Source of the DNA: a virus
Lineage: Duplodnaviria > Caudoviricetes
Direction: 5' to 3' (one strand)
IMG/VR virus record: IMGVR_UViG_3300021963_000022
Length of the DNA: 64,000 nt
The notes below the pieces were generated by a model that saw only the letters and a list, made by a program, of their open reading frames with translations, did no database searches and had not been told where the DNA came from. Position 1 is the stretch's first letter; each line of letters begins with the position of its first letter. The translations under genes were made by a program, and so were the position numbers. This document shows positions 10,088 through 63,924 of the stretch, piece after piece.

Positions 10088-10093
10088 TAAATA
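10088..10093 (+). promoter_or_regulatory. Late-type promoter TAAATA (representative)
   Basis: TAAATA 5 nt before ATG 10099; recurs at 15041, 43801, 55548 (+) and 51557, 54699, 55498, 62713, 63896 (-). Confidence 0.65.
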
Positions 10094-10098
10094 CTAGG

Positions 10099-11589
10099 AT
10101 GTATAAAAAATATTTGTCCCTATCTTCCCTAACACTGTTAGTAGCACTAGCATTAAGTACAGTAGCAGCCTACTATAGTATTATTGGTTTAACTGCTATC
10201 TTTGCTGGTGCGGTTATTCCTGTTATTATAATGGGAGGTATACTAGAAATAGGCAAGATTACTACTACGGTATGGTTACGAAAATATTGGAATCGTTGTG
10301 GCTTCCTACTTAAACTCTATCTTGTACCTGCTGTTATTGCATTAGCATTACTTACTAGCATGGGTATATTTGGCTTCCTAAGTAAAGCACATATGGATCA
10401 AGGAATTACAACAGGGGATATACAAGCCAAAATTGCAATCTACGATGAGAAGATTAAAGTATCACAGGACACTATAGATGTTAATCGCAAAGCACTTAAA
10501 CAACTTGATGAGGCAGTGGACCAAGTTATGGGCCGCTCGACTTCAGAAGCGGGTGCAGATAAAGCCGTTGCTATACGCAAAACTCAAGCAAAGGAAAGGA
10601 CTAGACTCCTTACGGAAATTGCGTCCGAACAGAAAACAATTACTAGAATACGAGAAGAACGAGCGCCCATTGCGGCTGAAGTACGCAAGGTCGAAGCGGA
10701 AGTTGGCCCTATCAAATACATTGCCGCATTGATTTACGGAGACAATGCCGACAATAATATGTTAGAGTCGGCCGTACGTTGGGTTATTATTTTACTTGTA
10801 ATTGTATTTGACCCACTTGCTATCGCTTTAGTATTAGCTGCCAATGCAAGTAGAGAATGGGATAAAGAGGAGGGTGACAGCCCTCTAGGGACCGAAACAC
10901 CAACGACTCCCACTGTCACTGAACCAGCATATGAGCCTGATGATGGGCCTTTAACAGAAGAACAAATTGAAGAAATACAAGATTCTGCGGAACCACCTAT
11001 AGGCGAGGTAGTAACTAAAGACGAATTGTTTCCTGAAGAATCTGTCTTAGACAAACATCCTTACCTAGCCAAACCGTTTGTTCATTTTGAAAATCTAGAA
11101 CCTATTGTAGGAAAAAAAGAACCTGAACCAAAGAAATTTGACATAGATAATATAACAGTTGATTCTACTGAGATAATTGTTGCTACTATAAAAGAACCTG
11201 ATATTGTGACAACTGAATATTCAGTTACAGGAGATTACATCGAAGTTGAAGGTAAACAGATGCACAAAAGGATAGCAGGAGACTTATATCCCGACATGTT
11301 AAAAATTGTAGTAGATGGTGAGAATTCAATTAGTGTTAATTTTGGTACTGCATTCCCTAAATATGCAAAGCGAGGTGACCTGTTTACCCGTGTAGATTCA
11401 TTACCAAATCGTGTATACAAATTTGACGGATCACGTTGGTTAGAAGTTAACAAAGAAAATAGCATATCATATCTGACACAAACTAAGTATGTTGAATATC
11501 TTATCAACAAAATTGCAACAGGTGAATATGATCCTGAGTTATTAACTGACGCAGAAAATCAAGCCATCACAGAATTCATAAAAAAATAA
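10099..11589 (+). CDS. Membrane protein with coiled coil and acidic tail
   Basis: N-terminal TM helices, heptad coiled coil, further TM, acidic Pro-rich C-half. Confidence 0.8.
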   Translation: MYKKYLSLSSLTLLVALALSTVAAYYSIIGLTAIFAGAVIPVIIMGGILEIGKITTTVWLRKYWNRCGFLLKLYLVPAVIALALLTSMGIFGFLSKAHMDQGITTGDIQAKIAIYDEKIKVSQDTIDVNRKALKQLDEAVDQVMGRSTSEAGADKAVAIRKTQAKERTRLLTEIASEQKTITRIREERAPIAAEVRKVEAEVGPIKYIAALIYGDNADNNMLESAVRWVIILLVIVFDPLAIALVLAANASREWDKEEGDSPLGTETPTTPTVTEPAYEPDDGPLTEEQIEEIQDSAEPPIGEVVTKDELFPEESVLDKHPYLAKPFVHFENLEPIVGKKEPEPKKFDIDNITVDSTEIIVATIKEPDIVTTEYSVTGDYIEVEGKQMHKRIAGDLYPDMLKIVVDGENSISVNFGTAFPKYAKRGDLFTRVDSLPNRVYKFDGSRWLEVNKENSISYLTQTKYVEYLINKIATGEYDPELLTDAENQAITEFIKK

Positions 11590-11632
11590 CACATGATATA
11601 CTTTGATAAGTATTTCATATCTACCTTAAATA

Positions 11633-12832
11633 ATGACAGAAGAAACCAAATTAAAACATTGTAGCTTTTGCGGCAACAGTAAAGAAGCAGTTAAAAAATT
11701 AGTTGTAGGTGAGAATGTAGCTATATGTAGTGATTGTGTAGAGCTATGTCAAGACCTTATTGCTGATGAAGTAGGCGACACCAAAGAAGAATTACAACCC
11801 GAATATGATGCTGAAACTATTAAAAAGTTTTTAGATGAGCATGTTATTGGGCAAGATTCAGCTAAGATGGTTATGAGTGTTGCTATTGCAAATCACTATA
11901 AACGTATTACTAATCCTCCAAAGAACTTAGAGATTCAAAAGGGAAATGTTCTTATAGTAGGACCTACGGGTTCAGGTAAAACATTATTAGCTAAAACAGC
12001 TGCCAAGTATCTAAACGTCCCTTTCATAGTAGCTGACGCAACTAGCTTAACAGAAGCAGGTTATGTCGGTGATGATGTAGAATCAATGATTAGTATGCTA
12101 TTGAATGCCGCCGGTGGTGACAAAGACTTAGCAGAACGTGGAATCGTATTTGTTGATGAAATTGACAAGATTGCACGTAAGGGTGAAAGTACTAGTATTA
12201 CCCGTGACGTATCCGGAGAGGGAGTTCAACAAGCATTACTAAAGTTAGTTGAAGGTACTGTATGTCGTATTCCTAATAGTGGTGGAAGAAAACATCCTGG
12301 ATCTGATATGTCTGAGATTAATACTAAAAATATCTTATTCATTGCAGGTGGTGCGTTTGTTGGATTAAAAGAACTTATCACCAATCGTGTTAATGGTACA
12401 AGCATTGGATTTAATGCTAGTGTTAAAGACACTAGAATTGAAGGTGACATGCGTGATGTTCGCCCGGATGATTTAACTAAATTTGGTATGATTCCTGAAT
12501 TTATTGGACGTTTTACTACTACTGTCAGCATTGACAATCTTAATAAAGAACAATTAATAAGGGTCTTAACTGACGTTAAGAACAATTACATTAGCCAATA
12601 TAAATATCTATTTGAGTTAGATAATATTACACTAGAATTTACTGACAATGCGTTGGATCAAATTGCAGAAAACACTATCTCTCTTAAAACAGGGGCACGT
12701 GGACTTCATACTGAGATTGAAAGAGTATTGATGCCACATATGTTTAAAGTAAGAACGTATGCTAAAAACGGGATTAAAACACTAAATATAGATAGAGTTG
12801 ATGTAATTACACCAAAACCATTGTATGAGTAA
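11633..12832 (+). CDS. clpX: ATP-dependent Clp protease ATPase ClpX
   Basis: C4 zinc finger CSFC...CSDC, GPTGSGKT, DEIDK, RDVSGEGVQQALLK, IGF loop, GARGL. Confidence 0.97.
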   Translation: MTEETKLKHCSFCGNSKEAVKKLVVGENVAICSDCVELCQDLIADEVGDTKEELQPEYDAETIKKFLDEHVIGQDSAKMVMSVAIANHYKRITNPPKNLEIQKGNVLIVGPTGSGKTLLAKTAAKYLNVPFIVADATSLTEAGYVGDDVESMISMLLNAAGGDKDLAERGIVFVDEIDKIARKGESTSITRDVSGEGVQQALLKLVEGTVCRIPNSGGRKHPGSDMSEINTKNILFIAGGAFVGLKELITNRVNGTSIGFNASVKDTRIEGDMRDVRPDDLTKFGMIPEFIGRFTTTVSIDNLNKEQLIRVLTDVKNNYISQYKYLFELDNITLEFTDNALDQIAENTISLKTGARGLHTEIERVLMPHMFKVRTYAKNGIKTLNIDRVDVITPKPLYE

Positions 12833-13046
12833 AAAAGGCAGACGAATTTTTGTTACAGACGGAAATGTAGATAAAGCTCTACGCAAGTTTAAGAAAAAGA
12901 TAACCGAATTAGGTTTACTTCAAGAAGTCCGTGACCGCCAAGAATTTGTCAAACCTACTGTCAAACGTAAAATAGCAAAAAGCCAAGCTGTTCGCAGGTG
13001 GAAAAAGCACTTGCGTGACCAATCATTACCACCAAAACAGTTTTAA
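12825..13046 (+). CDS. rpsU: 30S ribosomal protein S21
   Basis: NVDKALRKFKKK...EVRDRQEFVKPTVKRK. Confidence 0.9.
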   Translation: MSKKGRRIFVTDGNVDKALRKFKKKITELGLLQEVRDRQEFVKPTVKRKIAKSQAVRRWKKHLRDQSLPPKQF

Positions 13047-13095
13047 CCTAAATACTATATTTTTTTACGTATTTGTGTTATAATAAATACATATT

Positions 13096-13153
13096 GTAGA
13101 TGCCGATGGTCGGGTCTACACATAGTCATCTTGCTTAATAGGAGAAAAACATG
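13096..13153 (+). promoter_or_regulatory. ROSE-like RNA thermometer in sHSP 5' UTR
   Basis: GTAGA/TCTAC hairpin, then TCTTGCT-TAAT-AGGAGA hairpin pairing the SD with a bulged G. Confidence 0.75.
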
Positions 13154-13588
13154 ACAAAAACTTTAACCCTTCGTTCCCTCGACATTCCGTCAATTCACAA
13201 ATTTGGTATCGGTTTCGATAATATGTTTGATGAACTAATGCGAATTAACAATCAACAATCACTTAACTATCCCCCATACAACATTATAAAAACATCAGAA
13301 GATACCTTTTATATTGAAGTAGCAGTGGCTGGTTTCGGTGAAGGTGAAGTTGAAATTAACATTGACAATCAAGTGTTAGTTATCAAAGGTAAAAAAGAAG
13401 CAGAAATTATTGCTGAATATTTACATCAAGGGATCAGTAACAGGGACTTCATGCGTGAATTTACTTTAGCAGAACATGTTGAAGTAGTTAATGCTGTCAA
13501 TATGAATGGTATTCTTACTATCTATTTGGAGCGCAAACTCCCTGAAGAAAAGAAACCCAAGTCTATTGCAATTTCTTACACTAAATAA
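13151..13588 (+). CDS. ibpA: Small heat shock protein (IbpA/Hsp20)
   Basis: IGFDNMF, NYPPYNI, AVAGF, YLHQGIS.RDF.REFTL, NGIL. Confidence 0.95.
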   Translation: MTKTLTLRSLDIPSIHKFGIGFDNMFDELMRINNQQSLNYPPYNIIKTSEDTFYIEVAVAGFGEGEVEINIDNQVLVIKGKKEAEIIAEYLHQGISNRDFMREFTLAEHVEVVNAVNMNGILTIYLERKLPEEKKPKSIAISYTK

Positions 13589-13612
13589 TATAATAGTGTT
13601 TCGTTAAATAAA

Positions 13613-13636
13613 AGTGTGCGAGGAAACTTGCACACT
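13613..13636 (+). other. GNRA-capped intergenic hairpin
   Basis: AGTGTGCGAG-GAAA-CTTGCACACT; no U-tract. Confidence 0.5.
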
Positions 13637-13653
13637 ACTTCAAGGTATAAATC

Positions 13654-13959
13654 ATGGCACAGACCGAATCAAAAATTAAAATTAAACCTAATCTTAAATT
13701 ACCAGAACCATCTATGTTCAAGGTAATTTATATGAATGATGAACATACTAGTATGGATTTCGTAGTGCGTAGTTTAGTAGATCATTTCGGTCACAATACT
13801 GATACTGCCGCACATATTACTACAGGTATACATGAGCAGGGCAGTGCTGTCGTAGCAGTTCTACCGTATGAAATTGCAGAACAAAAGGGTATTGAGGTAA
13901 CACTTGATGCACGTAACGAGGGATTTCCGTTACAAGTAAAGATTGAGCCAGAAGTTTAA
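13654..13959 (+). CDS. clpS: Clp protease adaptor ClpS
   Basis: FKVIYMNDEHTSMDFVV...IHEQGSAVV...FPLQVKIEP. Confidence 0.92.
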   Translation: MAQTESKIKIKPNLKLPEPSMFKVIYMNDEHTSMDFVVRSLVDHFGHNTDTAAHITTGIHEQGSAVVAVLPYEIAEQKGIEVTLDARNEGFPLQVKIEPEV

Positions 13960-14980: not shown

Positions 14981-15054
14981 AATTTTCTCCTTATACATCT
15001 ATTTACTCTAGGAAAACCATAAAGATAAAATTTATAATCATAAATACAAGTACT

Positions 15055-15546
15055 ATGTTTCACGGATCACCTACTCTAAAAGAACTAATGGCTTTGCCAT
15101 TACCCACTATGCGTGAGCAAAAACGTCTAATGTTTAGGCCCTCACAATGGCAAGTTTCACACGTTTATACACTGATAAACGATAATGTTTTTCATAATAT
15201 GTTAAAAAAACCGGAACTCATACTAAAATCAAGATGTAGAAAATATTGGGGAATGTGTATAGGATCACATGACAAGTTAAAAAACGGTAGTTATTGTAAG
15301 ATTGAACTTATGGACAAGTGGATTAGTCCACAATGGATGATAGCTACATTGGCACATGAAATGGTTCATCAATATCAATGGGATATAGCAGGGCCTGAAC
15401 GTGAGGCAGAGGGATTAAATGCTATTATGAGTCATGGTCCAAGTTTCTTTCAGTTTCGTGATTTATTAAAAGAACACAATATCCCATTAAAAACGGCGCA
15501 TTCTCAGCGCCGTTGGTATAAGCATCAAAGCTTGTTCAAATGCTAA
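15055..15546 (+). CDS. SprT-like metallopeptidase
   Basis: TLAHEMVH plus downstream HG..F. Confidence 0.8.
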   Translation: MFHGSPTLKELMALPLPTMREQKRLMFRPSQWQVSHVYTLINDNVFHNMLKKPELILKSRCRKYWGMCIGSHDKLKNGSYCKIELMDKWISPQWMIATLAHEMVHQYQWDIAGPEREAEGLNAIMSHGPSFFQFRDLLKEHNIPLKTAHSQRRWYKHQSLFKC

Positions 15547-17307: not shown

Positions 17308-17368
17308 TTGACAATAAATGGGTTTGGGTATACAATAGAATCTTAGACAGTTAAATAAAGGACAGTAA
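17308..17368 (+). promoter_or_regulatory. Early promoter/RBS repeat, copy 4
   Basis: TTGACA-17-TACAAT-AGAATCTTAGACAGTTAAATAAAGGA. Confidence 0.9.
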
Positions 17369-17981: not shown

Positions 17982-18041
17982 TTGACAATAAATGATTTTG
18001 GGTATATAATAGAATCTTAAACAGTCAACTAAAGGACACAA
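17982..18041 (+). promoter_or_regulatory. Early promoter/RBS repeat, copy 6
   Basis: TTGACA-17-TATAAT-AGAATCTTAAACAG. Confidence 0.9.
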
Positions 18042-18303: not shown

Positions 18304-18364
18304 TTGACAATAAATGGGCATTGTGCTATAATAGAATCTTAGACAGTAAAGAAAAGGACTACAA
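18304..18364 (+). promoter_or_regulatory. Early promoter/RBS repeat, copy 7
   Basis: TTGACA-17-TATAAT-AGAATCTTAGACAG. Confidence 0.9.
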
Positions 18365-18849: not shown

Positions 18850-18908
18850 CAATAAATCACTTTGGGTATATAATAGAATCTTAAACAGTTAAATAAAGGA
18901 CTTACAAA
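18846..18908 (+). promoter_or_regulatory. Early promoter/RBS repeat, copy 8
   Basis: TTGACA-17-TATAAT-AGAATCTTAAACAGTTAAATAAAGGA. Confidence 0.9.
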
Positions 18909-25263: not shown

Positions 25264-25571
25264 GTACTTGGTTTTCTAGTATAATCAACTAAATTAAAAT
25301 CTTCGCCAGAACCCACTAAACAAGTGATATCACCTTTAGTAGTGATTATAGACCAAGATTTAGTATTTGGATTAATCCACAAAGACATTATACTACGAGC
25401 TTGGTCTGCTGTTTTGCCAATCAACAGTGGGCTCTCTCTGTATTTCTCTTTGAGTTTACCTACAATTTCTTTTGTATCTGAACAATAAAGTTCAGCGGTA
25501 ATCATCTCTCCGGCGTTACTTTGTAGTGGCACGATAGACGCCATCCCAATCAGTAGGTAAATTGTTTTCAC
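25260..25571 (-). CDS. Small secreted protein
   Basis: Signal-like N-terminus, two Cys; AGGAG RBS before GTG. Confidence 0.7.
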   Translation of the reverse strand: MKTIYLLIGMASIVPLQSNAGEMITAELYCSDTKEIVGKLKEKYRESPLLIGKTADQARSIMSLWINPNTKSWSIITTKGDITCLVGSGEDFNLVDYTRKPST

Positions 25572-27567
25572 GTAGTTCTCCTATTCTTTCTATCATTATA
25601 TCATAATAGTCATCCATATGCGAATCAAATTCACCCTTTAGTTGGTCTATCATATGCAATGCCTGATCCCATTTCTGTTCACGGTAATAATCTATCATCA
25701 AATCATGTATCTCACGTGCTGATAGATATTCTGTAATAGTACTAGGATCAGTCTTTAATGGTGTGTAGATATTCAATCCAATTGTCTTACCCTTTACAGC
25801 AATACAATCTAACTCTAATGTAAAGATTTCATCTTTAACTTGCTCATTAGTATTAGGACCAATGATACATAACACACCATATCCTTTAGTCTGGCCTTCT
25901 AGCCTAGCCGCAGTAGATACACTATCACCTAATACGTCATAACCAAACTTAGTTTTAGCACCAATGTTACCGATCAATGTTTCACCTGTGTTAACACCGG
26001 CACCCATACCAACTGGTGGACGACCACTCGCTGTTAACTCTTTATTGAATTCTTCAATAGCATCAATCATTTGCATTGCAGTTATAACCGCTGTTACTGC
26101 ATGTTTAGGATCGTCTAATGGTGCACCATGTACATGTAAACTTGCATCACCGATGAACTTAATTAATGTACCATCGTTCTTTAATACAGGAACACTTAAT
26201 GCAGTCATGTAGTCATTCATAATCTGTGTCAAGCCTTCAACGTCATCTCCGAATGACTCGCCTAAACTAGTGAATCCACGCAAATCAGTCATAACAATAG
26301 ATAATTCTCTACGTTCTCCTCCTAACTTAATTAGTGAAGGATCTTTCTGTAATCTTTCAACTATAGTTGGATTGACATAACTTCCAAACTGTTTCTTAAT
26401 TTGTTGTTTCTGTAAGAATTCACTTACAAACTTGACAGTATAAGCATGAAGATAAACCAAACCAATCCCAGTAACAGGGGCGGTAATATCATAGAGCCAT
26501 AGATTGGATGTGAATAGATACGATGCAATAAAATGACTAGAACCAAGAACAATAATAACTGGAATAAAAGCATATGTCCACCTTGATAATAATATAACTA
26601 ATAAACCTAAAGCTAGTATAGCGATAAGTTCCACACCATCAGCATAATCAGGACGCACAATAACAACATTGTTAAGCATCGTTCCTATTATACTAGCTTG
26701 AACATCATGTGGCCATACTGATCCTTTACTTGTCGGTACAGGATTGTTTAATCCACTCGCAGTTAAGCCCACTATAACAATAGCACCACCAAAGTCTTTT
26801 GGTAGATCCATTAAACTTACTGGTTTGCTTTGTTGACTGTAATCAATCCAAATACGTCCTAAATTATCAGTAATAATAGTACCAAACTTTGGTATACGCA
26901 TTTTTTCTACACCATTCTCGTTAAGCTTAACTTGGAATGTTGTATCTCCTGCGGCCACTCTTAGTACTTCCATACTTAAACTTGGGTAGAGTTTACCATC
27001 TACACTAGCAATCAATGGGATACGTCTATTGACACCATCTATCTCTGGTAATGTATTAGCTGTACCTACACCATATGCACTGTTTTCTAATAGAGGAACG
27101 TTAGCAATGATTCCTGGATACTGAACTATTCTATCTAACCATTCAGGAGCTAATACTGCTGCACCTGGATTACGTGGAATATTCTTTGTTTTGTCACTAG
27201 GTATATTAGGAAGAATAACAGGATACTGTTTCATAATATATGCTAACTTACCATCTTGACCACTTCTATCACTATCAGGCATTAGTACGTTGAATACAAC
27301 AAGACCTGCATTACGTTTGTATAAGTCTTCTATTATTTTAGCGTATTCGTTGCGTGGTAATGGCCACTGACCATACTTGTCCAATGTTGCTTCATCTACA
27401 TTGACTGTGTAGATGTTGTTTTCTGTTGGAGCTTTATTAGTGATAAGAGTATCAAAATATCTTAATCTAACTGATTCTATGAATTGAGAATCTGCTACAC
27501 GAACCGAAAGAACTAGTACTAGCGTTAGTAGCGCCGACCAGGGACTGAGAATTATTTTTTTAATCAT
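25516..27567 (-). CDS. CHASE2-domain class III adenylate cyclase
   Basis: GQWPLPR CHASE2, three TM helices, DLRGFT, KFIGDA, YDVLGDSVSTAARLE. Confidence 0.93.
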   Translation of the reverse strand: MIKKIILSPWSALLTLVLVLSVRVADSQFIESVRLRYFDTLITNKAPTENNIYTVNVDEATLDKYGQWPLPRNEYAKIIEDLYKRNAGLVVFNVLMPDSDRSGQDGKLAYIMKQYPVILPNIPSDKTKNIPRNPGAAVLAPEWLDRIVQYPGIIANVPLLENSAYGVGTANTLPEIDGVNRRIPLIASVDGKLYPSLSMEVLRVAAGDTTFQVKLNENGVEKMRIPKFGTIITDNLGRIWIDYSQQSKPVSLMDLPKDFGGAIVIVGLTASGLNNPVPTSKGSVWPHDVQASIIGTMLNNVVIVRPDYADGVELIAILALGLLVILLSRWTYAFIPVIIVLGSSHFIASYLFTSNLWLYDITAPVTGIGLVYLHAYTVKFVSEFLQKQQIKKQFGSYVNPTIVERLQKDPSLIKLGGERRELSIVMTDLRGFTSLGESFGDDVEGLTQIMNDYMTALSVPVLKNDGTLIKFIGDASLHVHGAPLDDPKHAVTAVITAMQMIDAIEEFNKELTASGRPPVGMGAGVNTGETLIGNIGAKTKFGYDVLGDSVSTAARLEGQTKGYGVLCIIGPNTNEQVKDEIFTLELDCIAVKGKTIGLNIYTPLKTDPSTITEYLSAREIHDLMIDYYREQKWDQALHMIDQLKGEFDSHMDDYYDIMIERIGELRENNLPTDWDGVYRATTK

Positions 27568-27628
27568 ATGTTAGAATGTTTTCTAAGTCTGTCATTTTGT
27601 TTCCTTTGTAATAAATGTGTTTATTATT

Positions 27629-28500
27629 TTAAGTTGATGAATAACCTGCGGCTGCTAATTCAAATCTAGCAGTACCAACACCTGCAGTATCACCGGCTAC
27701 GACACCTGTATTACTTACTTTGTTGGTTATTGATGTTAGGCCAAGACCATATCCAAATATAGCTTTATCAGAGCCATAACCTGCGGCTGCTAAATTAGCC
27801 CTAGCAGTGCCTACACCGGTAGTATCAGTAGCTACAACTCCTGTGTTTGATACTTTGTTGGTTATTGATACATAAGCACCTGACGGTACTGTTACATGAC
27901 CATATCCAAATATAGCCTTGTCAGTACCATAACCTGCGGCTGCTAATCCACTTCTAGCAGTCCCTACACCTGAGGTATCAGTAGCAACTACACCGGTATT
28001 TGATACTAGGTTGGTTATTGAAGTGGACGGGCTGAACCCATATCCAAATATAGCTTTATCAGTACCATAACCTGCGGCTGCTAATAAAGTTCTTGCAGTA
28101 CCAACACCTGCGGTATCAGTTGCCACTACACCTGTGCTTGATACTAGATTGGTCATTGACACGTATTCGAAGGTTTCGCCATATCCAAAAATAGCTTTAT
28201 TACCACCATAACCTGCGGCTGCAAGACGATGCCTAGCAGTACCAACACCTGTTGTATTACTAGCAACCACGCCTGTATTTGATACTAGATTGGTTATTGA
28301 TTGATTCAAGGCAGAGTTATTACCACCATATCCAAATATAGCTTTATCACCACCATAACTTGCTGCCGCCAATCCATATCTACCAGTACCAACACCAGTA
28401 GTGTCTGTAGCAACTACACCGGTGTTTGATACTAGATTGGTCATTGAGACACCATCACCAGCAGACCCATATCCAAATATAGCTCTTTGAGTAGGAAGAG
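27629..28500 (-). repeat. About six ~46-47 aa repeats (AAAGYGxDKAIFGYG...TNxVSNTGVVATDTxGVGTAR)
   Basis: Visible in both protein and DNA. Confidence 0.85.
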
Positions 28501-43813: not shown

Positions 43814-44365
43814 ATGTATGACGTTGTAGAGAAGATCACTGAATCCCAAAAAAGAAAAATAGAGATTGTATCACTCTCTTATTCCAGCACCGACCTCAAC
43901 CCTGTACTAAGCAAAAAGACAATGGACTATCACTACGGTGATTTAGCACATAAGTATGCTGAGAGATACAACAAGGGTGAGGGTGATAAAGACTTTAACT
44001 ATGCTGGTGCATTTTTACACAACATCTATTTCAGTCAATTCAGAAAGCCACAAGATAGTGGCACACCAAACGGTCCTGTACTTAATCTAATAAAACGTAA
44101 GTATGGCTGGTGGAAAGACTTCAAAGAACAATTCAAACTAGAAGCTATGAAGATACAAGGAAGTGGATGGATTTACATGTCCTTTTCCGGAGAAATAAAA
44201 ACTATACAAAATCATGAGGTACGTGATGATATATTGATATTAGTTGACTGGTGGGAACATGCCTGGGCACTTGACTACCAGGCTGACAAAAAGAAATATT
44301 TAGAGAACATTTGGAAAATAATGAATTGGAATGTCATTAATACCCGATGGGGTAAAAATTTATGA
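43814..44365 (+). CDS. Fe/Mn superoxide dismutase
   Basis: DYHY..LAH, FLHN, GSGW, DWWEHA; metal specificity not determinable. Confidence 0.88.
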   Translation: MYDVVEKITESQKRKIEIVSLSYSSTDLNPVLSKKTMDYHYGDLAHKYAERYNKGEGDKDFNYAGAFLHNIYFSQFRKPQDSGTPNGPVLNLIKRKYGWWKDFKEQFKLEAMKIQGSGWIYMSFSGEIKTIQNHEVRDDILILVDWWEHAWALDYQADKKKYLENIWKIMNWNVINTRWGKNL

Positions 44366-44380
44366 GAATAAGGAAACAAT

Positions 44381-44764
44381 ATGGCATACTCACAACAAGT
44401 TATAGATCACTATGAAAATCCCAGGAATGTTGGATCTTTTGACAAGACTGATACTGATATTGGTACTGGTATGGTTGGCGCGCCTGCATGCGGCGATGTT
44501 ATGAAATTACAAATAAAGGTTGACAATGTTACAGGTATTATTACAGATGCGAAATTTAAAACGTATGGCTGCGGATCGGCTATTGCGAGTTCAAGCCTCA
44601 TTACAGAATGGGTCAAAGGAAAAACACTTGACGAAGCCGGATCAATCAAAAACTCCGAAATCGCCGAAGAACTAGCATTGCCTCCGGTAAAGATACATTG
44701 TAGCATATTAGCTGAAGATGCCATCAAAGCCGCTGTAGAAGACTATAGAAAAAAAATAAAATGA
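44381..44764 (+). CDS. iscU: Fe-S scaffold IscU
   Basis: DHYENPRNVG, GAPACGDVM, YGCGSAIASSS, KIHCS. Confidence 0.97.
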   Translation: MAYSQQVIDHYENPRNVGSFDKTDTDIGTGMVGAPACGDVMKLQIKVDNVTGIITDAKFKTYGCGSAIASSSLITEWVKGKTLDEAGSIKNSEIAEELALPPVKIHCSILAEDAIKAAVEDYRKKIK

Positions 44765-45087
44765 TAACTCTTACTGAAAAAGCATATGATAAAGTAAAAA
44801 ATCAACTTAAAAAACGAGGTAAAGGAGTTGGGATTAGACTAGGTGTAAGGACTACTGGTTGCAGTGGGTTAGCATATACAATGGAATATGTTGATAATTA
44901 TGAAGCAGAAGTAGGAGTAATTAACTATTCACAAAAAGATTTTGTGATATTAGTGGATTTGAAAAGTGATGTGTACCTTAGGGGTCTCACAATGGATTGG
45001 GTTCGTAATGGACTTAATGAGGGATTTGATTTCAAAAACCCTAATGAAAAAGACCGCTGTGGTTGCGGGGAAAGTTTTAGAGTATGA
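44761..45087 (+). CDS. iscA: A-type Fe-S carrier IscA
   Basis: [19 protein letters not shown]. Confidence 0.93.
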
Positions 45088-45407
45088 TAACAATAACAGA
45101 ATCAGCAAAAATAAAAATATTGGATCTTCTAGCTGAAGAAGGTAATCCCGATTTAAAATTACGTACATTCGTACAAGGTGGCGGGTGTTCAGGGTTTAGT
45201 TATGGTTTTACATTTGATGAGATAATGAATGAAGATGATTTTGAAATGCCGTTAGGTGACTCCAAAGTTCTAATCGATGCCATGAGTATGCAATATTTAC
45301 AAGGTGCAAGCATAGATTATAAAGAAGACCTACAAGGATCAGAATTTAAAATAACTAATCCAAATGCACAATCCACATGTGGATGCGGTAGCTCTTTTTC
45401 TGTTTAG
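45084..45407 (+). CDS. erpA: A-type Fe-S carrier ErpA
   Basis: [35 protein letters not shown]. Confidence 0.9.
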
Positions 45408-48869: not shown

Positions 48870-48931
48870 TTCGTATTCCTTTGTTTAACTGTTTAAGATT
48901 CTATTGTAGCACAATGCCCATTTATTGTCAA
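48870..48931 (-). promoter_or_regulatory. Early promoter/RBS repeat, copy 9
   Basis: Reverse complement TTGACAATAAATGGGCATTGTGCTACAATAGAATCTTAAACAGTT; near-identical to copy 7. Confidence 0.9.
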
Positions 48932-49064: not shown

Positions 49065-49126
49065 TTCTTAGTCCTCTTTATCAGTTTCAATACAAGTATT
49101 GTAGCACAGGATCCATTTATTGTCAA
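49065..49126 (-). promoter_or_regulatory. Early promoter repeat, copy 10
   Basis: TTGACAATAAATGG-...-TACAAT. Confidence 0.85.
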
Positions 49127-49698: not shown

Positions 49699-49756
49699 TT
49701 GAACTCCTTTTGACTGAATAAGACTCTATTATATACCCAAACCGATTTATTGTCAA
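49699..49756 (-). promoter_or_regulatory. Early promoter/RBS repeat, copy 11
   Basis: TATAATAGAGTCTTATTCAGTCAAAAGGAG identical to copy 5. Confidence 0.9.
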
Positions 49757-50267: not shown

Positions 50268-50422
50268 ACAAGTACCTCTCGGTTTGGATGTTTGTCTTTA
50301 CGACGGTATTGTACTTTGGATTGTACAACCTTAGGTTTGAACGGAGTGTTGCTACAAAACAACACTTTGTGGGCCCGATGTTTGGGCTGTTCAATAGTGA
50401 ATGATATAGTTCTTCGTTTCAT
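50264..50422 (-). CDS. 52 aa ArfA-like basic peptide
   Basis: PFKPKVVQSKVQYRRKDKHPNR resembles ArfA PLFRQRV...YMRKGKHGNR (ArfA recalled from memory). Confidence 0.5.
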   Translation of the reverse strand: MKRRTISFTIEQPKHRAHKVLFCSNTPFKPKVVQSKVQYRRKDKHPNREVLV

Positions 50423-50429
50423 AATGCGT

Positions 50430-50458
50430 ATTATAGCATAGAAACATATTTATGTCAA
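50430..50458 (-). promoter_or_regulatory. sigma70 promoter, probably leaderless transcript
   Basis: TTGACA-17-TATAAT, ATG 7 nt downstream. Confidence 0.8.
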
Positions 50459-51552
50459 CTTTCGGAAATACCTTGGTAGTTCTGTAGTAGTTTTTGTATT
50501 GCTGAATTTGCATCAGTACCATTACGTAGAGCCTCTGCTACATCATCAATGAATTCTGTTTGGAAGTCTTGTTTTGTTTCTGGACTTAAGCTACGATATT
50601 TTGCGGCTACTGCACTATTTGCTGTCATATGTTTGTTCCACAATTCTTGTGCATGACCACTACTTTGTGACATTTGACTTTGTTGTTGCTGTTGTTGAGC
50701 CTGTTGTTCCTTATCCTGTTTTACTTTGTTTGCACGTTGAATATACTTAAAGCGATTAGGATCCTTCTTCTTCAAGTCAGTGCGGCTAGCATGGTACTTA
50801 TCTGTTACAGGTCTAAACTGCCCACCATATGGATTGAACAATAAGAACTCTGCATCCTCATCACTTAGATTGCCTATCCCCTTTTGTACATCACTTTGTA
50901 GTTGCTTGATGCCTTTATTATATGCATCATAGTCTGCACCTGTTAATGTATTTGCAGGGAAATCATTATCCATATCAATTTGTGGATAGTTGGCTGAATC
51001 TTTGCTATGTAAGTAGTTCATACCTTTAGCAGTAAATTGGTCTAGTATAAAAGCTCCCTTACCCGGACGTAAAAAGTATAATACCTTTGTAAAGAAACTT
51101 ACACCTAACCCAGGAAGTAATTGTAGTTTACGCAATCTTTGAATCAGGTCAAATGCTTGTGCATTTGTTAGATCACCAAAACGTATTTCGTTTAATGCAT
51201 TGTTGACTTGTCGTCTTGCTTCTTTGTCGTTCTTTAATTTCTTGTACAGTAGTTTGGGGTTGTTAGCACGATTGACCATACCGCCCCAGGCCATAATATA
51301 GAATAACAATTTTAAACTACTATTAGCTTTATCGGCAACCATTGCTTTAACTTCAGGCTTACTGTTTGTAGTAGTTGGATAGTTTTGTGGATTGTTCATT
51401 CCAGAAACAGATGCTAAACGACTAGGGTTATACTTTGCAGGTCCCCTGGCATCCATATATTTGTTACCTTGTGGATCGCTTTGTTGAAGCATTTTCCACT
51501 CGGCTTTTAATAATTTTAAATCTTGTTTGTCAAGCACTTCATTAATACGCAT
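50455..51552 (-). CDS. OGG-like HhH DNA glycosylase-domain protein
   Basis: IMAWGG, LPGLGVSFFTKVLYF, ILDQF; N-terminus MRINEVL; Q-rich tail. Confidence 0.6.
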   Translation of the reverse strand: MRINEVLDKQDLKLLKAEWKMLQQSDPQGNKYMDARGPAKYNPSRLASVSGMNNPQNYPTTTNSKPEVKAMVADKANSSLKLLFYIMAWGGMVNRANNPKLLYKKLKNDKEARRQVNNALNEIRFGDLTNAQAFDLIQRLRKLQLLPGLGVSFFTKVLYFLRPGKGAFILDQFTAKGMNYLHSKDSANYPQIDMDNDFPANTLTGADYDAYNKGIKQLQSDVQKGIGNLSDEDAEFLLFNPYGGQFRPVTDKYHASRTDLKKKDPNRFKYIQRANKVKQDKEQQAQQQQQQSQMSQSSGHAQELWNKHMTANSAVAAKYRSLSPETKQDFQTEFIDDVAEALRNGTDANSAIQKLLQNYQGISES

Positions 51553-51580
51553 ATAGTATTTATTCTACTATGTATTAATC

Positions 51581-53407: not shown

Positions 53408-53745
53408 TATTTTACTCCAAAAGTGTTTAATGCAGGTTGCATTGTGTTAATTAATTCTGTCTCACGGCTATGTGCTGGCTTCTTACCACGCACAACCTCG
53501 ATGACTCCAAATATAAAACTCTCGGCACCACGTTCACATAGGGCACGTGACAAACCCCAGTTTTTGTTCTCAGTCAAGGCACGTTGCATATGTTTTTGCA
53601 TACGACGGCGTAGTGTCAAAAACACATTGCCTTTATATGACAATGCAGTTAAGCCGATATAATACTCAAATGTTACAACATCTTGGATGTAGTAAATCAC
53701 TTGGTTACGATCGGTCCTACGTTTGCGGGTGCTTTTTGAGTTCAT
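53407..53745 (-). CDS. GIY-YIG family protein
   Basis: VIYYI...YYIG.T...R...H...E.ELI. Confidence 0.75.
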   Translation of the reverse strand: MNSKSTRKRRTDRNQVIYYIQDVVTFEYYIGLTALSYKGNVFLTLRRRMQKHMQRALTENKNWGLSRALCERGAESFIFGVIEVVRGKKPAHSRETELINTMQPALNTFGVK

Positions 53746-53751
53746 GTATGT

Positions 53752-53780
53752 ATTGTAGCACCATTACGAATTATTGTCAA
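53752..53780 (-). promoter_or_regulatory. sigma70 promoter, probably leaderless transcript
   Basis: TTGACA-17-TACAAT, ATG 6 nt downstream. Confidence 0.8.
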
Positions 53781-54222: not shown

Positions 54223-54690
54223 TTAGTTAGTATCTTCTGTTACTTTAAATCGGTTTGAATATTCATAGTTAACTGTATCTAGATTCTCACGGAAAACAAT
54301 AGCCCCATTACGTAAGTGAAATCTTCTAGCCATTTCAGTTTTAGGACTTAATGTAACAAATCTAGTAACACTAGGATATTCACGTTGAATGCCTTTTACT
54401 GCTTCAATTAATAACTCTTGACCTTTACCTGCTTTATAACTCCATATTGTGTAGAATACTGCAGTGGTCGGGACTGTTGCAGTAGTCTGCAAATCTGTAG
54501 TGTCTTGTGGTACAAAATCATGGAAACTAACACAAACCATCGCTTCTGGATTGTCTGCATTATCGTCGGTTAGTGCGGCAACCATTCTGCCGTTGCTGAC
54601 TCTAAAGTCAGTTGGTATTTCAGGCCGAACGGGATCGTCCTTAATGAAATCAAGTAGTTTATTAGTGAGGTCTTTGATGAAGTGGAGCAT
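54223..54690 (-). CDS. Hypothetical protein, GNAT-like C-terminus
   Basis: FYTIWSY..G.G...VTLSP...A.RFH..NGA. Confidence 0.55.
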   Translation of the reverse strand: MLHFIKDLTNKLLDFIKDDPVRPEIPTDFRVSNGRMVAALTDDNADNPEAMVCVSFHDFVPQDTTDLQTTATVPTTAVFYTIWSYKAGKGQELLIEAVKGIQREYPSVTRFVTLSPKTEMARRFHLRNGAIVFRENLDTVNYEYSNRFKVTEDTN

Positions 54691-54728
54691 AGTAAATGTA
54701 TTTAGTCATAGCGCATAAAATACATATA

Positions 54729-55493
54729 TTATGCACTATAAATTGTGTTTAAGAATTTTTCAACGATAATTTGTCGTTCTTTTTTAGTTTTAGCACCAAG
54801 CACAGTTATGTTATAAAGTTGGTTGTTTGATGTGACTAACAAAGTGATGCAGAATCCCGCTGCCTTAGTAAAGCCAGTTTTGATGGTGACAATACCCTCA
54901 CGTCCAGAGAATGTGCTAGTAGAATTGCTAGTAATCTTTAGTTGTTTCTTTCCCTTTGTAGTGTAAGCTGTAACTGATTTAACTTTTGCGGCATCTTTGA
55001 CTATATCGAACTCATATACTGCTTTGGTCAACAATACAATATCATTGATAGAACTATAGTTCATAGGACTTAACCCTGTAGGTTCAACAAATCTAGTATT
55101 GACCATGTTTAACTCTACTGTATGCTGATTCATTCTATTTATAAAATAGCTATATCCATACACAAAGTTTTCTGCTAGTGTTTGTGCCGCTAAGTTATCA
55201 CTTCCCACAAGTGCTAGATTAATCAAATCTAGTCTGGATAACGCTATTCCCTTGACTAATTTAGTATTGGGTGTAGTTTTACCAGTTACTGTAAGCTTTT
55301 CATGTAGGTCTTGATTCTCTTTAAGAACAGTATAAACCGTCATTAACTTGCTAATACTAGCAATACTCAGTTCATCATGGTCTAATGACCCTTCCACAAC
55401 ACGGTTGTTTGTTACGTCATACATCACCTTTGTAGTTGCGGAAAACGCAAATACGGGCAATAGTAAGAATAATGCTAGAATGATTTTGTTCAT
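54729..55493 (-). CDS. D-Ala-D-Ala peptidase S11 (PBP7/PbpG-like)
   Basis: Signal peptide; SISK (SxxK), SDN (SxN), KTG; start placed at 55493. Confidence 0.88.
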   Translation of the reverse strand: MNKIILALFLLLPVFAFSATTKVMYDVTNNRVVEGSLDHDELSIASISKLMTVYTVLKENQDLHEKLTVTGKTTPNTKLVKGIALSRLDLINLALVGSDNLAAQTLAENFVYGYSYFINRMNQHTVELNMVNTRFVEPTGLSPMNYSSINDIVLLTKAVYEFDIVKDAAKVKSVTAYTTKGKKQLKITSNSTSTFSGREGIVTIKTGFTKAAGFCITLLVTSNNQLYNITVLGAKTKKERQIIVEKFLNTIYSA

Positions 55494-55558
55494 AATATAT
55501 TTAGTGTATCTTATTAAGTGCGAATTGTCAATAGATAAGGTTAAGAATAAATACATAT

Positions 55559-56458
55559 ATGAACAATTATGAGCATTTTTCAAAGCTATGTGAGAGCATA
55601 GTAACAGAGGTTAGTACTGCTATGGCTGAGTTTAAAGGGCCCGGGGCACAGGAAGTACTAAAGTATCTACATCAAAGTCAAGCTTTTGGGCATGATGTTG
55701 ATATCAGACCATTAGCTAGACCAAAGTGGGCAGACCTTAGAAGTCCAGACTATGCTGATTCATGGTTTTTAATTTCAGGTACTAAAGGGTTTGTAGCGGC
55801 AAAATTTGCAAAAGGATCTTATCGTAATACTGGGACATTTATGATATTTGCTAGTAATGGTACACCTGATCCTGAAGAGGGTAACATAGTATATTCTACT
55901 ACAATAGATTCAGCGGTAGAGGCTAACAATTATGTCAAGTCTTTTATCGGTGATGCTAAAAAATATTATATAGCCCGATCAGAATATTCAACAACTTTGC
56001 GTAATACACGAAAAGCAAATAAACCCACAGAGATAAGCGATATGCATGTGGTCAGTAACAAGCTAGTGCAAAGATTCAAGCCGTTGTTTAACAAAATATT
56101 AGTTGCATCTAGGGCTGATGTTAACGGTGTCATTAGTTCTATGGTAAAGAATGATGCACATCATCGTGCAGAAAAGAAGATTGAGCATTTAAATCTAATA
56201 GATAGAAGTATTGATGAATTACAAGACGGGCAAATATCAGATTTTCTTAAAGATGCTGTAGGTAATAGTTTAATGATGACAGCAAGATACTACTACCCCG
56301 ATAAAACAGGTAACATTAGTAGCTCATATGGATATCGCAATTATGCATACTCATCTGAAAGTTCCGAAGGTGTTAAACAAGTATTAAAAGACATTCAATC
56401 TGGTGATAGACAAAAACTAAGTGCCGTACTTGCCTATCTAAAGAGGAGTTTAATATAA
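55559..56458 (+). CDS. Hypothetical late protein
   Basis: TAAATA 5 nt upstream. Confidence 0.75.
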   Translation: MNNYEHFSKLCESIVTEVSTAMAEFKGPGAQEVLKYLHQSQAFGHDVDIRPLARPKWADLRSPDYADSWFLISGTKGFVAAKFAKGSYRNTGTFMIFASNGTPDPEEGNIVYSTTIDSAVEANNYVKSFIGDAKKYYIARSEYSTTLRNTRKANKPTEISDMHVVSNKLVQRFKPLFNKILVASRADVNGVISSMVKNDAHHRAEKKIEHLNLIDRSIDELQDGQISDFLKDAVGNSLMMTARYYYPDKTGNISSSYGYRNYAYSSESSEGVKQVLKDIQSGDRQKLSAVLAYLKRSLI

Positions 56459-61288: not shown

Positions 61289-61364
61289 TGGAGCGGGCGA
61301 AGAGGCTCGAACTCTCGACATTTACCTTGGCAAGGTAATGCTCTACCAACTGAGCTACGCCCGC
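61289..61364 (-). tRNA. tRNA-Gly(GCC)
   Basis: GCGGGCGTAGCTCAG...TTGCCAA...TTCGAG...TCCA. Confidence 0.95.
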
Positions 61365-61365
61365 A

Positions 61366-61515
61366 TTAACTTGGAATAACATGTGGTATATATGGTACAT
61401 TACGTGGTCCATGTCGTTGTTCAAAAAGCTTTTTAGCTTCTTGTACGGTCGGTGCATACACACGATCTTTAGTATCACCTTGTGGTGTTCTAACTGTTGT
61501 TTCATACATTGGCAT
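61366..61515 (-). CDS. 49 aa protein between tRNAs
   Basis: AGGA RBS; MPMYETTVRTPQG... Confidence 0.6.
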   Translation of the reverse strand: MPMYETTVRTPQGDTKDRVYAPTVQEAKKLFEQRHGPRNVPYIPHVIPS

Positions 61516-61529
61516 ATATTATTCCTATT

Positions 61530-61604
61530 TGGTACATCGACACGGTTTCGAACCGCGGACCCTCTCCGTGTAAAGGAGACGCTCTACCCCTGAGCTATCG
61601 ATGC
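61530..61604 (-). tRNA. tRNA-Val(TAC)
   Basis: TCTCC-TTTACAC-GGAGA anticodon arm; CCA. Confidence 0.93.
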
Positions 61605-61614
61605 CTTATTCTAT

Positions 61615-61794
61615 TTAACCACCCTGTGTGCTATCTTTAACTTTTGTTTCACTAACAATACGTTCAAATTCATCATCTTCGTTTTTGTGATCCTCAACAA
61701 TTCTTGGATCAGGCTTACGAAAGATTAAGTCAAAGTTACTATCAAATGTCTTTAATGGGACACTAAATGGTCTTGGACTAGAACCCTTACTCAT
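61615..61794 (-). CDS. 59 aa protein
   Basis: MSKGSSPRPFSV...; ATGA-coupled. Confidence 0.6.
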   Translation of the reverse strand: MSKGSSPRPFSVPLKTFDSNFDLIFRKPDPRIVEDHKNEDDEFERIVSETKVKDSTQGG

Positions 61795-61955
61795 TTGTTA
61801 TTAGTCTTTCCAGAACCACGTGAATTACTTTGTTCAATCACAGCAAAACTGCGAATGAATGCACCACGTTCATGTGCGTCACGAATTTTTGCCGCGGCAC
61901 GTTTAACTGTCTTTGAAACTTTCACTGCTTTCGCATCATATCCTCTGCATGTCAT
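61791..61955 (-). CDS. 54 aa basic protein
   Basis: AAGGA RBS; MTCRGYDAKAVKVSKTVKR. Confidence 0.6.
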   Translation of the reverse strand: MTCRGYDAKAVKVSKTVKRAAAKIRDAHERGAFIRSFAVIEQSNSRGSGKTNNK

Positions 61956-61977
61956 AATATTTCCTTTTTAATTAAAT

Positions 61978-62055
61978 TGGTCGGAATGGTGGGATTCGAA
62001 CTCACGACCCTCTGCTCCCAAAGCAGATGCGCTAACCAGACTGCGCTACACTCCG
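61978..62055 (-). tRNA. tRNA-Pro(TGG)
   Basis: CGGAGTGTAGCGCAG...TTTGGGA...CCA. Confidence 0.95.
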
Positions 62056-62062
62056 AATATTC

Positions 62063-62383
62063 TTACCAGTAGTACCAGTGTGGCTTACGGCTCACACTAG
62101 GGTAATCAATGATATCCAAATCATTGATATCTACATTCAATACAATTTTCTCCCACTGACGACCTTTTGCTCGTTGTGGTTGATTCATCATTTCACGAAC
62201 CCACCACATGGGAGTGCTCATCCAGTGATACTCTGTATCAACTTTTTTTTTCTTTTTTGTTAAAACCCCGGGGTATTGTAAATAGTCAATATACTTACGA
62301 TTACCAATGAGGTAATATTTGTAATCCCAATCTTCTTCAGGGAATCTGAGTTTACTGGGACGATCTTTGTACGTTCTAGACAT
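62063..62383 (-). CDS. Hypothetical protein
   Basis: AAGGAG RBS; MSRTYKD...W..TP.WW. Confidence 0.75.
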   Translation of the reverse strand: MSRTYKDRPSKLRFPEEDWDYKYYLIGNRKYIDYLQYPGVLTKKKKKVDTEYHWMSTPMWWVREMMNQPQRAKGRQWEKIVLNVDINDLDIIDYPSVSRKPHWYYW

Positions 62384-62432
62384 AAAGTTCTCCTTATCTA
62401 AAATCGCATATTGACCTCGCTTTCTTAATGGT

Positions 62433-62507
62433 TGGTTGCGGGGGACGGATTCGCACCGCCGATCTTCAGCTTATGAGACTGATGAGTTACTACTTCTCCA
62501 CCCCACG
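62433..62507 (-). tRNA. tRNA-Met(CAT), initiator-like but atypical
   Basis: C1.A72, A11:U24, anticodon loop CTCATAA; lacks the three G:C pairs. Confidence 0.85.
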
Positions 62508-62530
62508 GTATATATTGTTATGATGTGAAT

Positions 62531-62707
62531 TTATGCTACAATAGGACGAAACTCAACCTTGAGTCCGTCTTCAACGTTGAAGTCTGATAGCAAACCGTTT
62601 GCTTTGGCAATATTTATTTCTTGCCAATAGTCTTTGGGTTGATAGCTATCACCCGTAACAGTTATTGTTTTATAAATTTTATCATTTATTAAAATTTTTA
62701 CTCGCAT
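62531..62707 (-). CDS. Hypothetical protein
   Basis: TAAATA 5 nt before ATG 62707. Confidence 0.6.
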   Translation of the reverse strand: MRVKILINDKIYKTITVTGDSYQPKDYWQEINIAKANGLLSDFNVEDGLKVEFRPIVA

Positions 62708-62725
62708 AATACTATTTATCATATC

Positions 62726-62801
62726 TGGTGGAGGATACAGGGATCGAACCTGCGACCTATTGCTTGCAAAGCAACCGCTCTCCCAACTGAGCTAATCCCC
62801 C
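62726..62801 (-). tRNA. tRNA-Ala(TGC)
   Basis: G3:U70, TTTGCAA loop, CCA. Confidence 0.95.
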
Positions 62802-62806
62802 TAATT

Positions 62807-62891
62807 TGGTACGAGTGGCCGGAATCGAACCGGCACACCTTTCGGCGAGAGATTTTAAGTCTCTTGTGTCTACCTATTTCACCACACTCGC
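62807..62891 (-). tRNA. tRNA-Leu(TAA)
   Basis: Long variable arm; CTTAAAA loop; CCA. Confidence 0.93.
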
Positions 62892-62892
62892 A

Positions 62893-63057
62893 TTATCTCA
62901 CAAATGCCTGAAAGTAATATGTAGTTGGGTTTAATGCATACCAACTACGAACCACACTGACACCACCTTGCGGTTGCCAGCCTTCAGACAATAATTCTGC
63001 TACTAGTTTATGAAATTCATCATAACTAGCATTTATAACCTTATACTCTGTTATCAT
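62893..63057 (-). CDS. DUF1737-like small protein
   Basis: YKVI...V..LL.EGWQPQGGVS; start placed at 63057. Confidence 0.6.
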   Translation of the reverse strand: MITEYKVINASYDEFHKLVAELLSEGWQPQGGVSVVRSWYALNPTTYYFQAFVR

Positions 63058-63062
63058 AACTT

Positions 63063-63147
63063 TGGTGCTCCAGGTCGGACTCGAACCGACACGCCTTTCG
63101 GCACTGGCTTCTAAGACCAGCGTGGCTACCAATTACACCACCAGAGC
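63063..63147 (-). tRNA. tRNA-Leu(TAG)
   Basis: Long variable arm; CTTAGAA loop; CCA. Confidence 0.93.
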
Positions 63148-63173
63148 AATTAAACTTTTTAAAGAACATACAT

Positions 63174-63202
63174 AGTATATAACAATAATCATATACTGTC
63201 AA
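63174..63202 (-). promoter_or_regulatory. sigma70 promoter for tRNA cluster
   Basis: TTGACA-17-TATACT. Confidence 0.75.
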
Positions 63203-63279
63203 ACATTTTGGGTTAGAAGAACTCAGACGTATAATAATCATTTACCGGTTAGTTATCACAGAGGTCCAAGCCTTGTTAT

Positions 63280-63355
63280 TGGAGCGGGAGGCGAGAGTCG
63301 AACTCGTCTATTTCTGCTTGGAAGGCAGACGTGTAACCAAAAACACTTCACCCGC
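63280..63355 (-). tRNA. tRNA-Gly(TCC), atypical
   Basis: TCTGC-CTTCCAA-GCAGA arm, U73, CCA; A8, U6.U67 and A.C mismatches. Confidence 0.8.
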
Positions 63356-63890
63356 GTTGATCCTTTTCTTGCCATTTTTTCTTAATAGCATCTGATATCT
63401 TTCTTTTATGTTCTTCTGACTTTGGTGGTCTTGATTTATATTTTGTACCTAATTTAGATTCTGAAATATTCATACGAACTTCATCGGTCATTTTAGGTGC
63501 TGTACCATTCTTACGTCTTGCAATCAAGACTTCTGACAACCTATCTCTGGTTTCTTGACTATGGTGTTTACCTAACATCTTAGGCATACCCGACTTGTTT
63601 ATATAATCGAAGCCACCAAAACCACCTCTACGAATATTGTAAACATCTTCCCTTAATAGGAATTCATCATTTACAAGTTCTTTTTCCCTAGCAAACATTT
63701 CTTCTGCTGTATCAAAATATTCTAAAATATCTTTTTTAAAATTTTCAATTCCATATTTGTCTTTTGCATAATTTAAGATTTTACCGGATCCCATGTAACC
63801 ATCATTTAAATTCTTAGTTTTATGAGTGCCTATATAAATTTTGTTGTCTAACAAATTAGTAATTTGGTATATGTAATAATAGTATTTCAT
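63348..63890 (-). mobile_element. Seg-like GIY-YIG homing endonuclease with NUMOD3-like repeats
   Basis: YIYQITN...YIG.H...YMGSG; HSQETRDRLS, SEEHKRKIS; start placed at 63890. Confidence 0.88.
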
Positions 63891-63924
63891 ACATTTATTT
63901 ATCAATAATGTGTAATCTGCTGTT

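Follow-up and report, generated by a model that had tools for sequence, protein, structure and literature searches.

Late genes of bacteriophage T4 are transcribed from a promoter, TATAAATA, that spans positions -13 to -6 and is served by the sigma factor gp55, the co-activator gp33 and the gp45 clamp (PMC2988020). Leaderless messages are described in other systems. Those of the lambda cI type, and genes of Deinococcus-Thermus with a '-10 region adjacent to ORFs' (open reading frames), have the -10 element 5-8 nucleotides (nt) before the AUG, carry no Shine-Dalgarno sequence and strongly prefer AUG as start codon (PMC9031893, PMC12340547). Phage phiYS40, whose host phylum commonly has leaderless genes (PMC12340547), has middle and late transcripts that are mostly leaderless, and in its infection IF2 of the host goes up and IF3 goes down (as summarised in PMC3594737). 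Examining a stretch of viral DNA of 64 kb and 37% G+C (IMG/VR record IMGVR_UViG_3300021963_000022; the whole stretch is called the window below), we found that about a dozen of its genes begin 4-8 bases past a promoter. Judging from the sequence, late promoters and a few sigma70 promoters fused to ATGs probably yield leaderless messages in this phage.

The late promoters of the window resemble those of T4 in their core box, in having no -35 element, in the C that often follows the box and in serving units on both strands, and the clade of the window encodes a gp55-type sigma. Unlike in T4, the box is 7 bp long with A or C at -12, and in about half of the window's candidate late units it lies 4-8 nt ahead of the ATG. 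The short distance from promoter to AUG, the missing Shine-Dalgarno and the preference for AUG are shared with the lambda cI and Deinococcus-Thermus design, from which the window differs in that the promoters are chiefly those of a phage late sigma, in a genome otherwise using AGGA-type leaders. With phiYS40 it shares large phage size, later genes predicted to be without leaders and a changed supply of initiation factors. However, phiYS40 is an unrelated phage whose transcript ends were mapped, those of the window being predicted, and it shifts host factors whereas the window phage carries its own IF-1 and initiator tRNA. Each ingredient has been described before: T4-type late promoters, leaderless mRNAs and translation genes of phages. 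The searchable literature on leaderless late genes of T4-type phages and cyanophages gave no account of them combined, with late boxes regularly fused to ATGs in a clade related to T4.

An earlier note on this DNA had named nine ATGs preceded by TAAATA at 4-8 nt, and re-reading of the sequence located [A/C]TAAATA at this distance at every one of them. On the + strand, ATAAATA lies 5 nt before the ATG at 10099 of a 496-amino-acid (aa) protein (10087-10101), 8 nt, ending in ACT, before the ATG at 15055 of a SprT-like protein (15040-15057) and 5 nt before the ATG at 55559 of a 299-aa protein (55547-55561). On the same strand CTAAATA precedes by 7 nt the ATG at 43814 of a Fe/Mn superoxide dismutase (43800-43816), and the TAA within this box doubles as the stop codon of the IF-1 gene. 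On the - strand, ATAAATA is found 4 nt before the ATG at 51552 of a 365-aa OGG-like protein (51550-51563) and 5 nt before those at 62707, opening a 58-aa ORF (62705-62719), and at 63890, opening a GIY-YIG homing endonuclease gene (63888-63902). CTAAATA is found there 8 nt, again ending in ACT, before the ATG at 54690 of a 155-aa protein (54688-54705) and 4 nt before that at 55493 of an S11 D-Ala-D-Ala carboxypeptidase with a signal peptide (55491-55531). The two sigma70 promoters that had been placed 6-7 nt before an ATG were borne out as well: TTGACA-N17-TATAAT stands 7 nt before the ATG at 50422 of a 52-aa protein (50420-50458, - strand) and TTGACA-N17-TACAAT 6 nt before the ATG at 53745 of a GIY-YIG protein (53743-53780, - strand). 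Our reading added an ATAAATA box 4 nt before the ATG at 63959, whose ORF runs off the window (63948-63961, + strand), the extended -10 element TGCTATAAT 5 nt before the ATG at 42480 of a 60-aa protein (42466-42482, + strand), a sigma70-like TTGACA-N17-TACACT that overlaps the late box of 55493, and a weaker fused promoter at 6534. Among the products of the genes fused to promoters are SprT-like, Fe/Mn superoxide dismutase, OGG-like and MCD-like proteins, two GIY-YIG endonucleases, an S11 carboxypeptidase that is secreted and several uncharacterised proteins.

At every fused site the gap to the ATG is too short for a Shine-Dalgarno. Seven of the ATGs (10099, 51552, 54690, 55559, 50422, 53745 and 42480) are the sole possible starts of their genes, because an in-frame stop lies 9-30 nt upstream (15 nt at 10099, 9 nt at 42480) and no alternative start codon is available. 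The genes at 55493 and 55559 are divergent and separated by 65 nt, and those at 63890 and 63959 are likewise divergent. In the related genome G001, introduced below, divergent genes at 181825 and 181847 (181804-181868; L073) both start with ATGCAATAC, 21 nt apart, such that the first codons of each gene contain the late box of its partner. The short gaps of the 55493/55559 pair and of the G001 pair leave no space for leaders. We also observed that clpX directly follows TTAAATA at a spacing of 0 (11624-11635), and that in the relatives G001 and G002 it is preceded by ATAAGTA, 5 nt and ATG, possibly a variant late box.

To count fused boxes, we scored each TAAATA followed after 4-8 nt by the ATG of an ORF 50 or more codons long, with 13 hexamers of the same composition as control. 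In the window 10 of 67 TAAATA boxes were fused, compared with 26 of 1272 control hexamers (odds ratio 8.4, p = 4.5e-6). The earlier note had asked whether TAAATA is commoner before starts than AT-rich DNA would give; it is commoner than composition predicts, and this control rules out chance or AT-richness as the cause of the layout. Other genomes were counted at a box-to-ATG spacing of 4-6 nt. They included two relatives that are complete by CheckV (G001, 349 kb; G002, 352 kb) and a closer relative represented by a 97-kb contig (G004). Fused boxes numbered 39 of 466 in G001 (p = 2.5e-16), 42 of 362 in G002 (p = 2.5e-24) and 13 of 141 in G004 (p = 2.9e-8), giving about 40 fused genes each in G001 and G002. 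Pelagibacter phage HTVC008M also had an excess (14 of 186, p = 5e-7). The counts were not significant in Methylophilales phage Melnitz (3 of 113) nor, against permuted-hexamer controls, in T4 (3 of 225) and the cyanophage Syn9 (0 of 132). The distribution of box-to-ATG distances is bimodal: one peak is sharp, at 4-5 nt, and the other is broad, covers 12-27 nt and has a Shine-Dalgarno between box and ATG. The flank preference of fused and distant boxes is identical (G/A, A/C, TAAATA, C). Sigma70-like promoters have a main distance class at 27-34 nt, which is the conserved early leader, and a minor class at 6-7 nt.

The layout is conserved among orthologues. For the gene at 10099, orthologues were found in 54 viral (IMG/VR) contigs at 46-90% identity, about 50 of which keep the box, 4-7 nt and the ATG, the sequence further upstream being unrelated. 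At 51552 box and spacing are kept in L002 and G004 at 85-87% identity, again with unrelated upstream sequence, and at 55559 G001, G004 and L002, with proteins of 56-58% identity, match the window base for base from box to ATG. The sigma70 promoter of 50422 is kept in G001, G004 and L002, with a spacing of 9 nt in G002, and that of 53745 has the same spacing in G001, G002, G004, L002 and L058. Spacing varies at other genes: the box of 15055, 8 nt from the ATG in the window, is 4 nt from it in the G001 and G002 orthologues, and the orthologue of 43814 in G001 has ATAAATA and 5 nt (7 in the window). At 54690 the box is fused in the window, whereas in G001, G002, G004 and L002 it lies 22-27 nt upstream, with a GAGG Shine-Dalgarno between box and ATG in G001, G004 and L002. 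Because the box at this gene acts at variable distance, it behaves as a promoter rather than a ribosome-binding signal. The led form in the relatives and the fused form here look like a natural before-and-after pair for the loss of a leader.

A gp55-like sigma is encoded in G001, G002 and G004 (E values of 1e-12 to 1e-14), and the G001 protein matches the PHROG 'sigma factor for late transcription' at 1.6e-70. The window's 7-bp [A/C]TAAATA corresponds to positions -12 to -6 of the T4 promoter and would be read by such a gp55-type sigma. Since the T4 late box spans -13 to -6 (PMC2988020), +1 is expected five bases after the final A of the box, and a spacing of 5 predicts the A of the AUG as +1. 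The three sites at a spacing of 7-8 (15055, 43814 and 54690) all end in ACT before the ATG, and a 3-nt leader starting on that A is therefore predicted. RNA polymerase would thus start on the A of the AUG at spacings of 4-5 and 2-3 nt ahead of it at spacings of 7-8. Two or three host-type sigma70 promoters are placed alike, 5-7 nt before the ATG; at a sigma70 spacing of 6-7 nt the A comes seventh or eighth after the -10 element, in the usual start window. That transcripts would begin at the AUG or within about 3 nt of it, from late and a few sigma70 promoters, is well supported. The earlier note had assigned the boxes to T4-type late promoters that start a few nt downstream: the enrichment statistics, bimodal spacing, orthologue conservation and gp55-type sigma strengthen the promoter assignment, and the start sites follow from it by inference.

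Several observations weigh against leaderless expression from these promoters. The start sites are deduced from promoter geometry only, and at a spacing of 4 the canonical +1 would fall on the U of the AUG, so that a one-base shift to a purine must be assumed. The gp55 homologue was seen in relatives and none lies within the 64-kb window, and neither gp33 nor a gp45-type clamp was detected in G001 and G002 with Melnitz gp33, gp45 and PF09116 as queries, which are possibly too distant. Finally, the fused genes of the window encode mostly accessory enzymes and homing endonucleases and include no structural genes, their designation as late coming from promoter type alone; in G001 the fused set also takes in the large terminase and a virion protein.

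Messages that start in this way and carry no Shine-Dalgarno would enter the leaderless route, in which a ribosome loaded with formylmethionyl-tRNA (fMet-tRNA) binds the 5'-terminal AUG, while internal and most early genes retain ordinary AGGA-type leaders. Two properties of the fused genes were compared with those of other genes. The predicted 5' fold over the first 36 nt is weaker in fused than in led genes (-1.19 versus -2.30 kcal/mol, p = 2.6e-5). Fused genes start with ATG in 95 cases, TTG in 6 and GTG in 3, as against 98, 51 and 9 in the background, a preference that fits the dependence of leaderless initiation on AUG (PMC9031893).

The window also encodes the three translation components listed in the earlier note, as profile matches and direct reading confirmed. 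IF-1 (43584-43799, + strand) matches PF01176 over residues 7-70 at 79.8 bits against a cut-off of 30.2, and bS21 (12825-13046, + strand) matches PF01165 at 57.6 bits against a cut-off of 27. The initiator-type tRNA(CAU) (62433-62507, - strand; Rfam tRNA model, 53.7 bits) has a C1xA72 mismatch and A11:U24. The note had described it as lacking the three G:C pairs. Bacterial initiator tRNA-fMet has three consecutive ones (29:41, 30:40, 31:39); the anticodon stem here reads A29:U41, G30:C40, U31.G39, leaving G30:C40 of the three. The copies in G001 and G004 (A:U, G:C, G:C) and in G002 (G:C, G:C, U.G) each miss one G:C pair, at differing positions. Unconventional initiator tRNAs without the full set of three G:C pairs were reportedly described by Samhita et al. 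in PNAS in 2012. The phage tRNAs are like these in keeping the 1x72 mismatch and A11:U24 with one or two G:C pairs in the stem, and unlike them in being phage-encoded, four related phages each being without a G:C pair at positions that differ. The 58-aa ORF of 62707 ends 24 nt before the initiator-like tRNA, which belongs to a tRNA array (61289-63905, - strand) interspersed with small ORFs and a GIY-YIG endonuclease gene that bear late boxes.

The IF-1 gene is led by a Shine-Dalgarno and lies downstream of a TATAAT-type (sigma70-type) promoter near 43125; its AAGGAG stands about 15 nt before the ATG (43562-43586), an unusually long gap that is kept in G001 and G002. The protein is 90% identical to that of G002 and 75% to that of G001, and its nearest bacterial homologues, at 60-69%, are scattered over Clostridia, Campylobacterota, Rhodospirillaceae and others. 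The distance and scatter of the bacterial homologues, together with the 75-90% identity among relatives, indicate that IF-1 is a long-resident phage gene; neither donor nor host could be inferred from these nearest bacterial matches. Of 50,697 deposited phage records, 35 carry IF-1, and most of these are from huge phages of unrelated hosts. The bS21 gene overlaps the end of clpX within the unit starting at 10099, and bS21 is present in G001, G002, Melnitz and HTVC008M. In described phage bS21 systems S21 likewise sits behind a late-type box (putatively late here), and the idea is likewise that ribosomes are biased towards phage late messages; those phages have Bacteroidetes as hosts, in which Shine-Dalgarno sequences are not used, and no link to promoter-fused starts was drawn there (PMC9723584). 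We searched the complete relatives G001 and G002 for IF3, deformylase and formyltransferase and found none of them. Very large phages are reported to carry bS21 and further translation genes, among them IF-1 and many tRNAs (Mizuno et al. in 2019 and Al-Shayeb et al. in 2020).

If the boxes are promoters, most protein might still be made from longer transcripts reading through from upstream promoters, by coupling or 70S scanning, with leaderless species in the minority. An upstream gene on the same strand does precede 10099, 43814 and 51552, and one RNA-library contig (9970-10129) spans the ATG at 10099. The RNA libraries here are assembled contigs of estuary metatranscriptomes, which are short, of low depth and blind to transcript ends, and in which DNA carry-over is possible. 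We consider this reading unlikely: no upstream gene on the same strand is available at 55493/55559, at 63890/63959, at the G001 pair 181825/181847 or directly after tRNAs and terminators, and read-through offers no reason for the strictly conserved spacing of 4-5 nt. The fixed position of TAAATA relative to the ATG would instead be accounted for if TAAATA-N4/5-ATG were an A/U-rich translation signal of the RNA that replaces the Shine-Dalgarno, and A/U-rich upstream tracts can enhance initiation. This is highly improbable, as the same box with the same flanks occurs 12-27 nt ahead of genes that have their own Shine-Dalgarno, orthologues of 54690 switch between the fused and the led layout, the box fits the late consensus of the T4 family in a clade that encodes the matching sigma, and sigma70 promoters likewise have a minor peak, at 6-7 nt. 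Leaderless expression from fused promoters is the explanation that we prefer, and such messages could yield more protein with the help of phage IF-1 and the initiator-type tRNA.

The earlier note had gone further and taken IF-1, bS21 and the initiator-like tRNA as a dedicated kit that tilts host initiation towards the leaderless late messages of the phage. The biochemistry gives this a sound basis: IF1 and IF2 stimulate leaderless translation in vitro and IF3 inhibits it, and extra fMet-tRNA strongly boosts leaderless translation while canonical translation hardly changes (PMC9031893). The complete relatives have kept both IF-1 and the tRNA and have no IF3, deformylase or formyltransferase that we could find, IF-1 is an old gene of the phage lineage and not a recent host capture, bS21 and the tRNA sit downstream of fused late boxes, and the Thermus phage phiYS40 provides a precedent for initiation factors tuned towards leaderless mRNAs (PMC3594737). 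However, HTVC008M shows the layout (at the p value given above) with neither IF-1 nor an initiator tRNA, Melnitz carries S21 without the layout, and the IF-1 gene is itself Shine-Dalgarno-led behind a sigma70-type promoter. IF-1 is mainly a trait of huge genomes, as its distribution over phage records shows, a pattern in keeping with translation genes generally becoming more numerous in larger genomes; S21 is not mentioned for leaderless initiation in the review PMC9031893. Moreover, the co-occurrence of kit and layout amounts to about one evolutionary event, the genomes compared giving about one independent contrast. A dedicated kit is thus a doubtful proposition, though one we hold less improbable than read-through. 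A stricter form of it, a private initiation channel, seems to us as unlikely as read-through: the weak-stem phage tRNA and IF-1, with no IF3, would load 70S ribosomes on the 5'-terminal AUGs of late and some early messages, and the tRNA would escape or outcompete IF3 proofreading, favouring phage over Shine-Dalgarno-led host messages late in infection.

The phage to which the window belongs is uncultured, comes from fresh water, is related to T4 and has a genome of about 350 kb. Searches of deposited phages by megablast and blastn found no DNA similarity to it, and near-identical DNA was found in sequencing runs of 15 studies, chiefly of lake and other freshwater metagenomes. Its proteins have distant kin in the T4-like marine myophages Melnitz and HTVC008M and closer kin in IMG/VR contigs, including G001 and G002. 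The gene content takes in DNA ligase, ClpX, ClpS, Hsp20, IscU, two IscA-like genes, superoxide dismutase, a curli/cyclase module, a 2280-aa repeat protein and eight tRNAs. Genes of host physiology are clustered at 11633-13959 (ClpX, bS21, Hsp20 and ClpS) and at 43814-45407 (superoxide dismutase, IscU and two IscA/ErpA-like proteins). The Hsp20 gene (13151-13588) lies behind two TAAATAC boxes, at 13049 and 13084 (region 13047-13588), and the gene had the highest RNA-library contig depth in the 20 kb covered (14-19, versus about 1-2). A module at 25516-39979 (- strand) is common to Melnitz and HTVC008M and encodes an adenylate/guanylate-cyclase-like protein whose Melnitz counterpart, at 42% identity, adjoins the curli genes of that phage; in the window the 2280-aa protein, with RCC1-like repeats, precedes it.

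A second promoter arrangement recurs before many small genes. In this early module, TGnTATAAT is followed by AGAATCTTAGACAGT, AAAGGA and the ATG, at a fixed distance of about 32 nt from -10 to ATG, reminiscent of the promoter-early stem-loop cassettes of T4. Copies lie on the + strand at 1290-1317, 17340-17368, 18013-18041, 18336-18364 and 18880-18908, and on the - strand at 48870-48900, 49065-49095 and 49699-49730.

If transcripts truly start at the AUG, about a tenth of the genes in a large, widespread clade of aquatic T4-related phages is expressed through a signal of 12 bases, a 7-bp promoter and 5 spacer bases, directly followed by the ATG. No more compact unit of gene expression would then be known in the T4-related family. 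In our reading, a 7-bp promoter without a -35 element that is fused to an ATG makes a minimal portable cassette, which would serve core late genes and accessory or selfish ones alike, and accessory genes and homing endonucleases would then be mobile as self-sufficient cassettes. The layout also supplies gene callers with a start-site rule for such genomes. Finally, it offers a natural system for asking whether viral IF-1, initiator tRNA and S21 alter how ribosomes choose between messages with and without a leader, a question that dates from the discovery of translation genes in huge phages.

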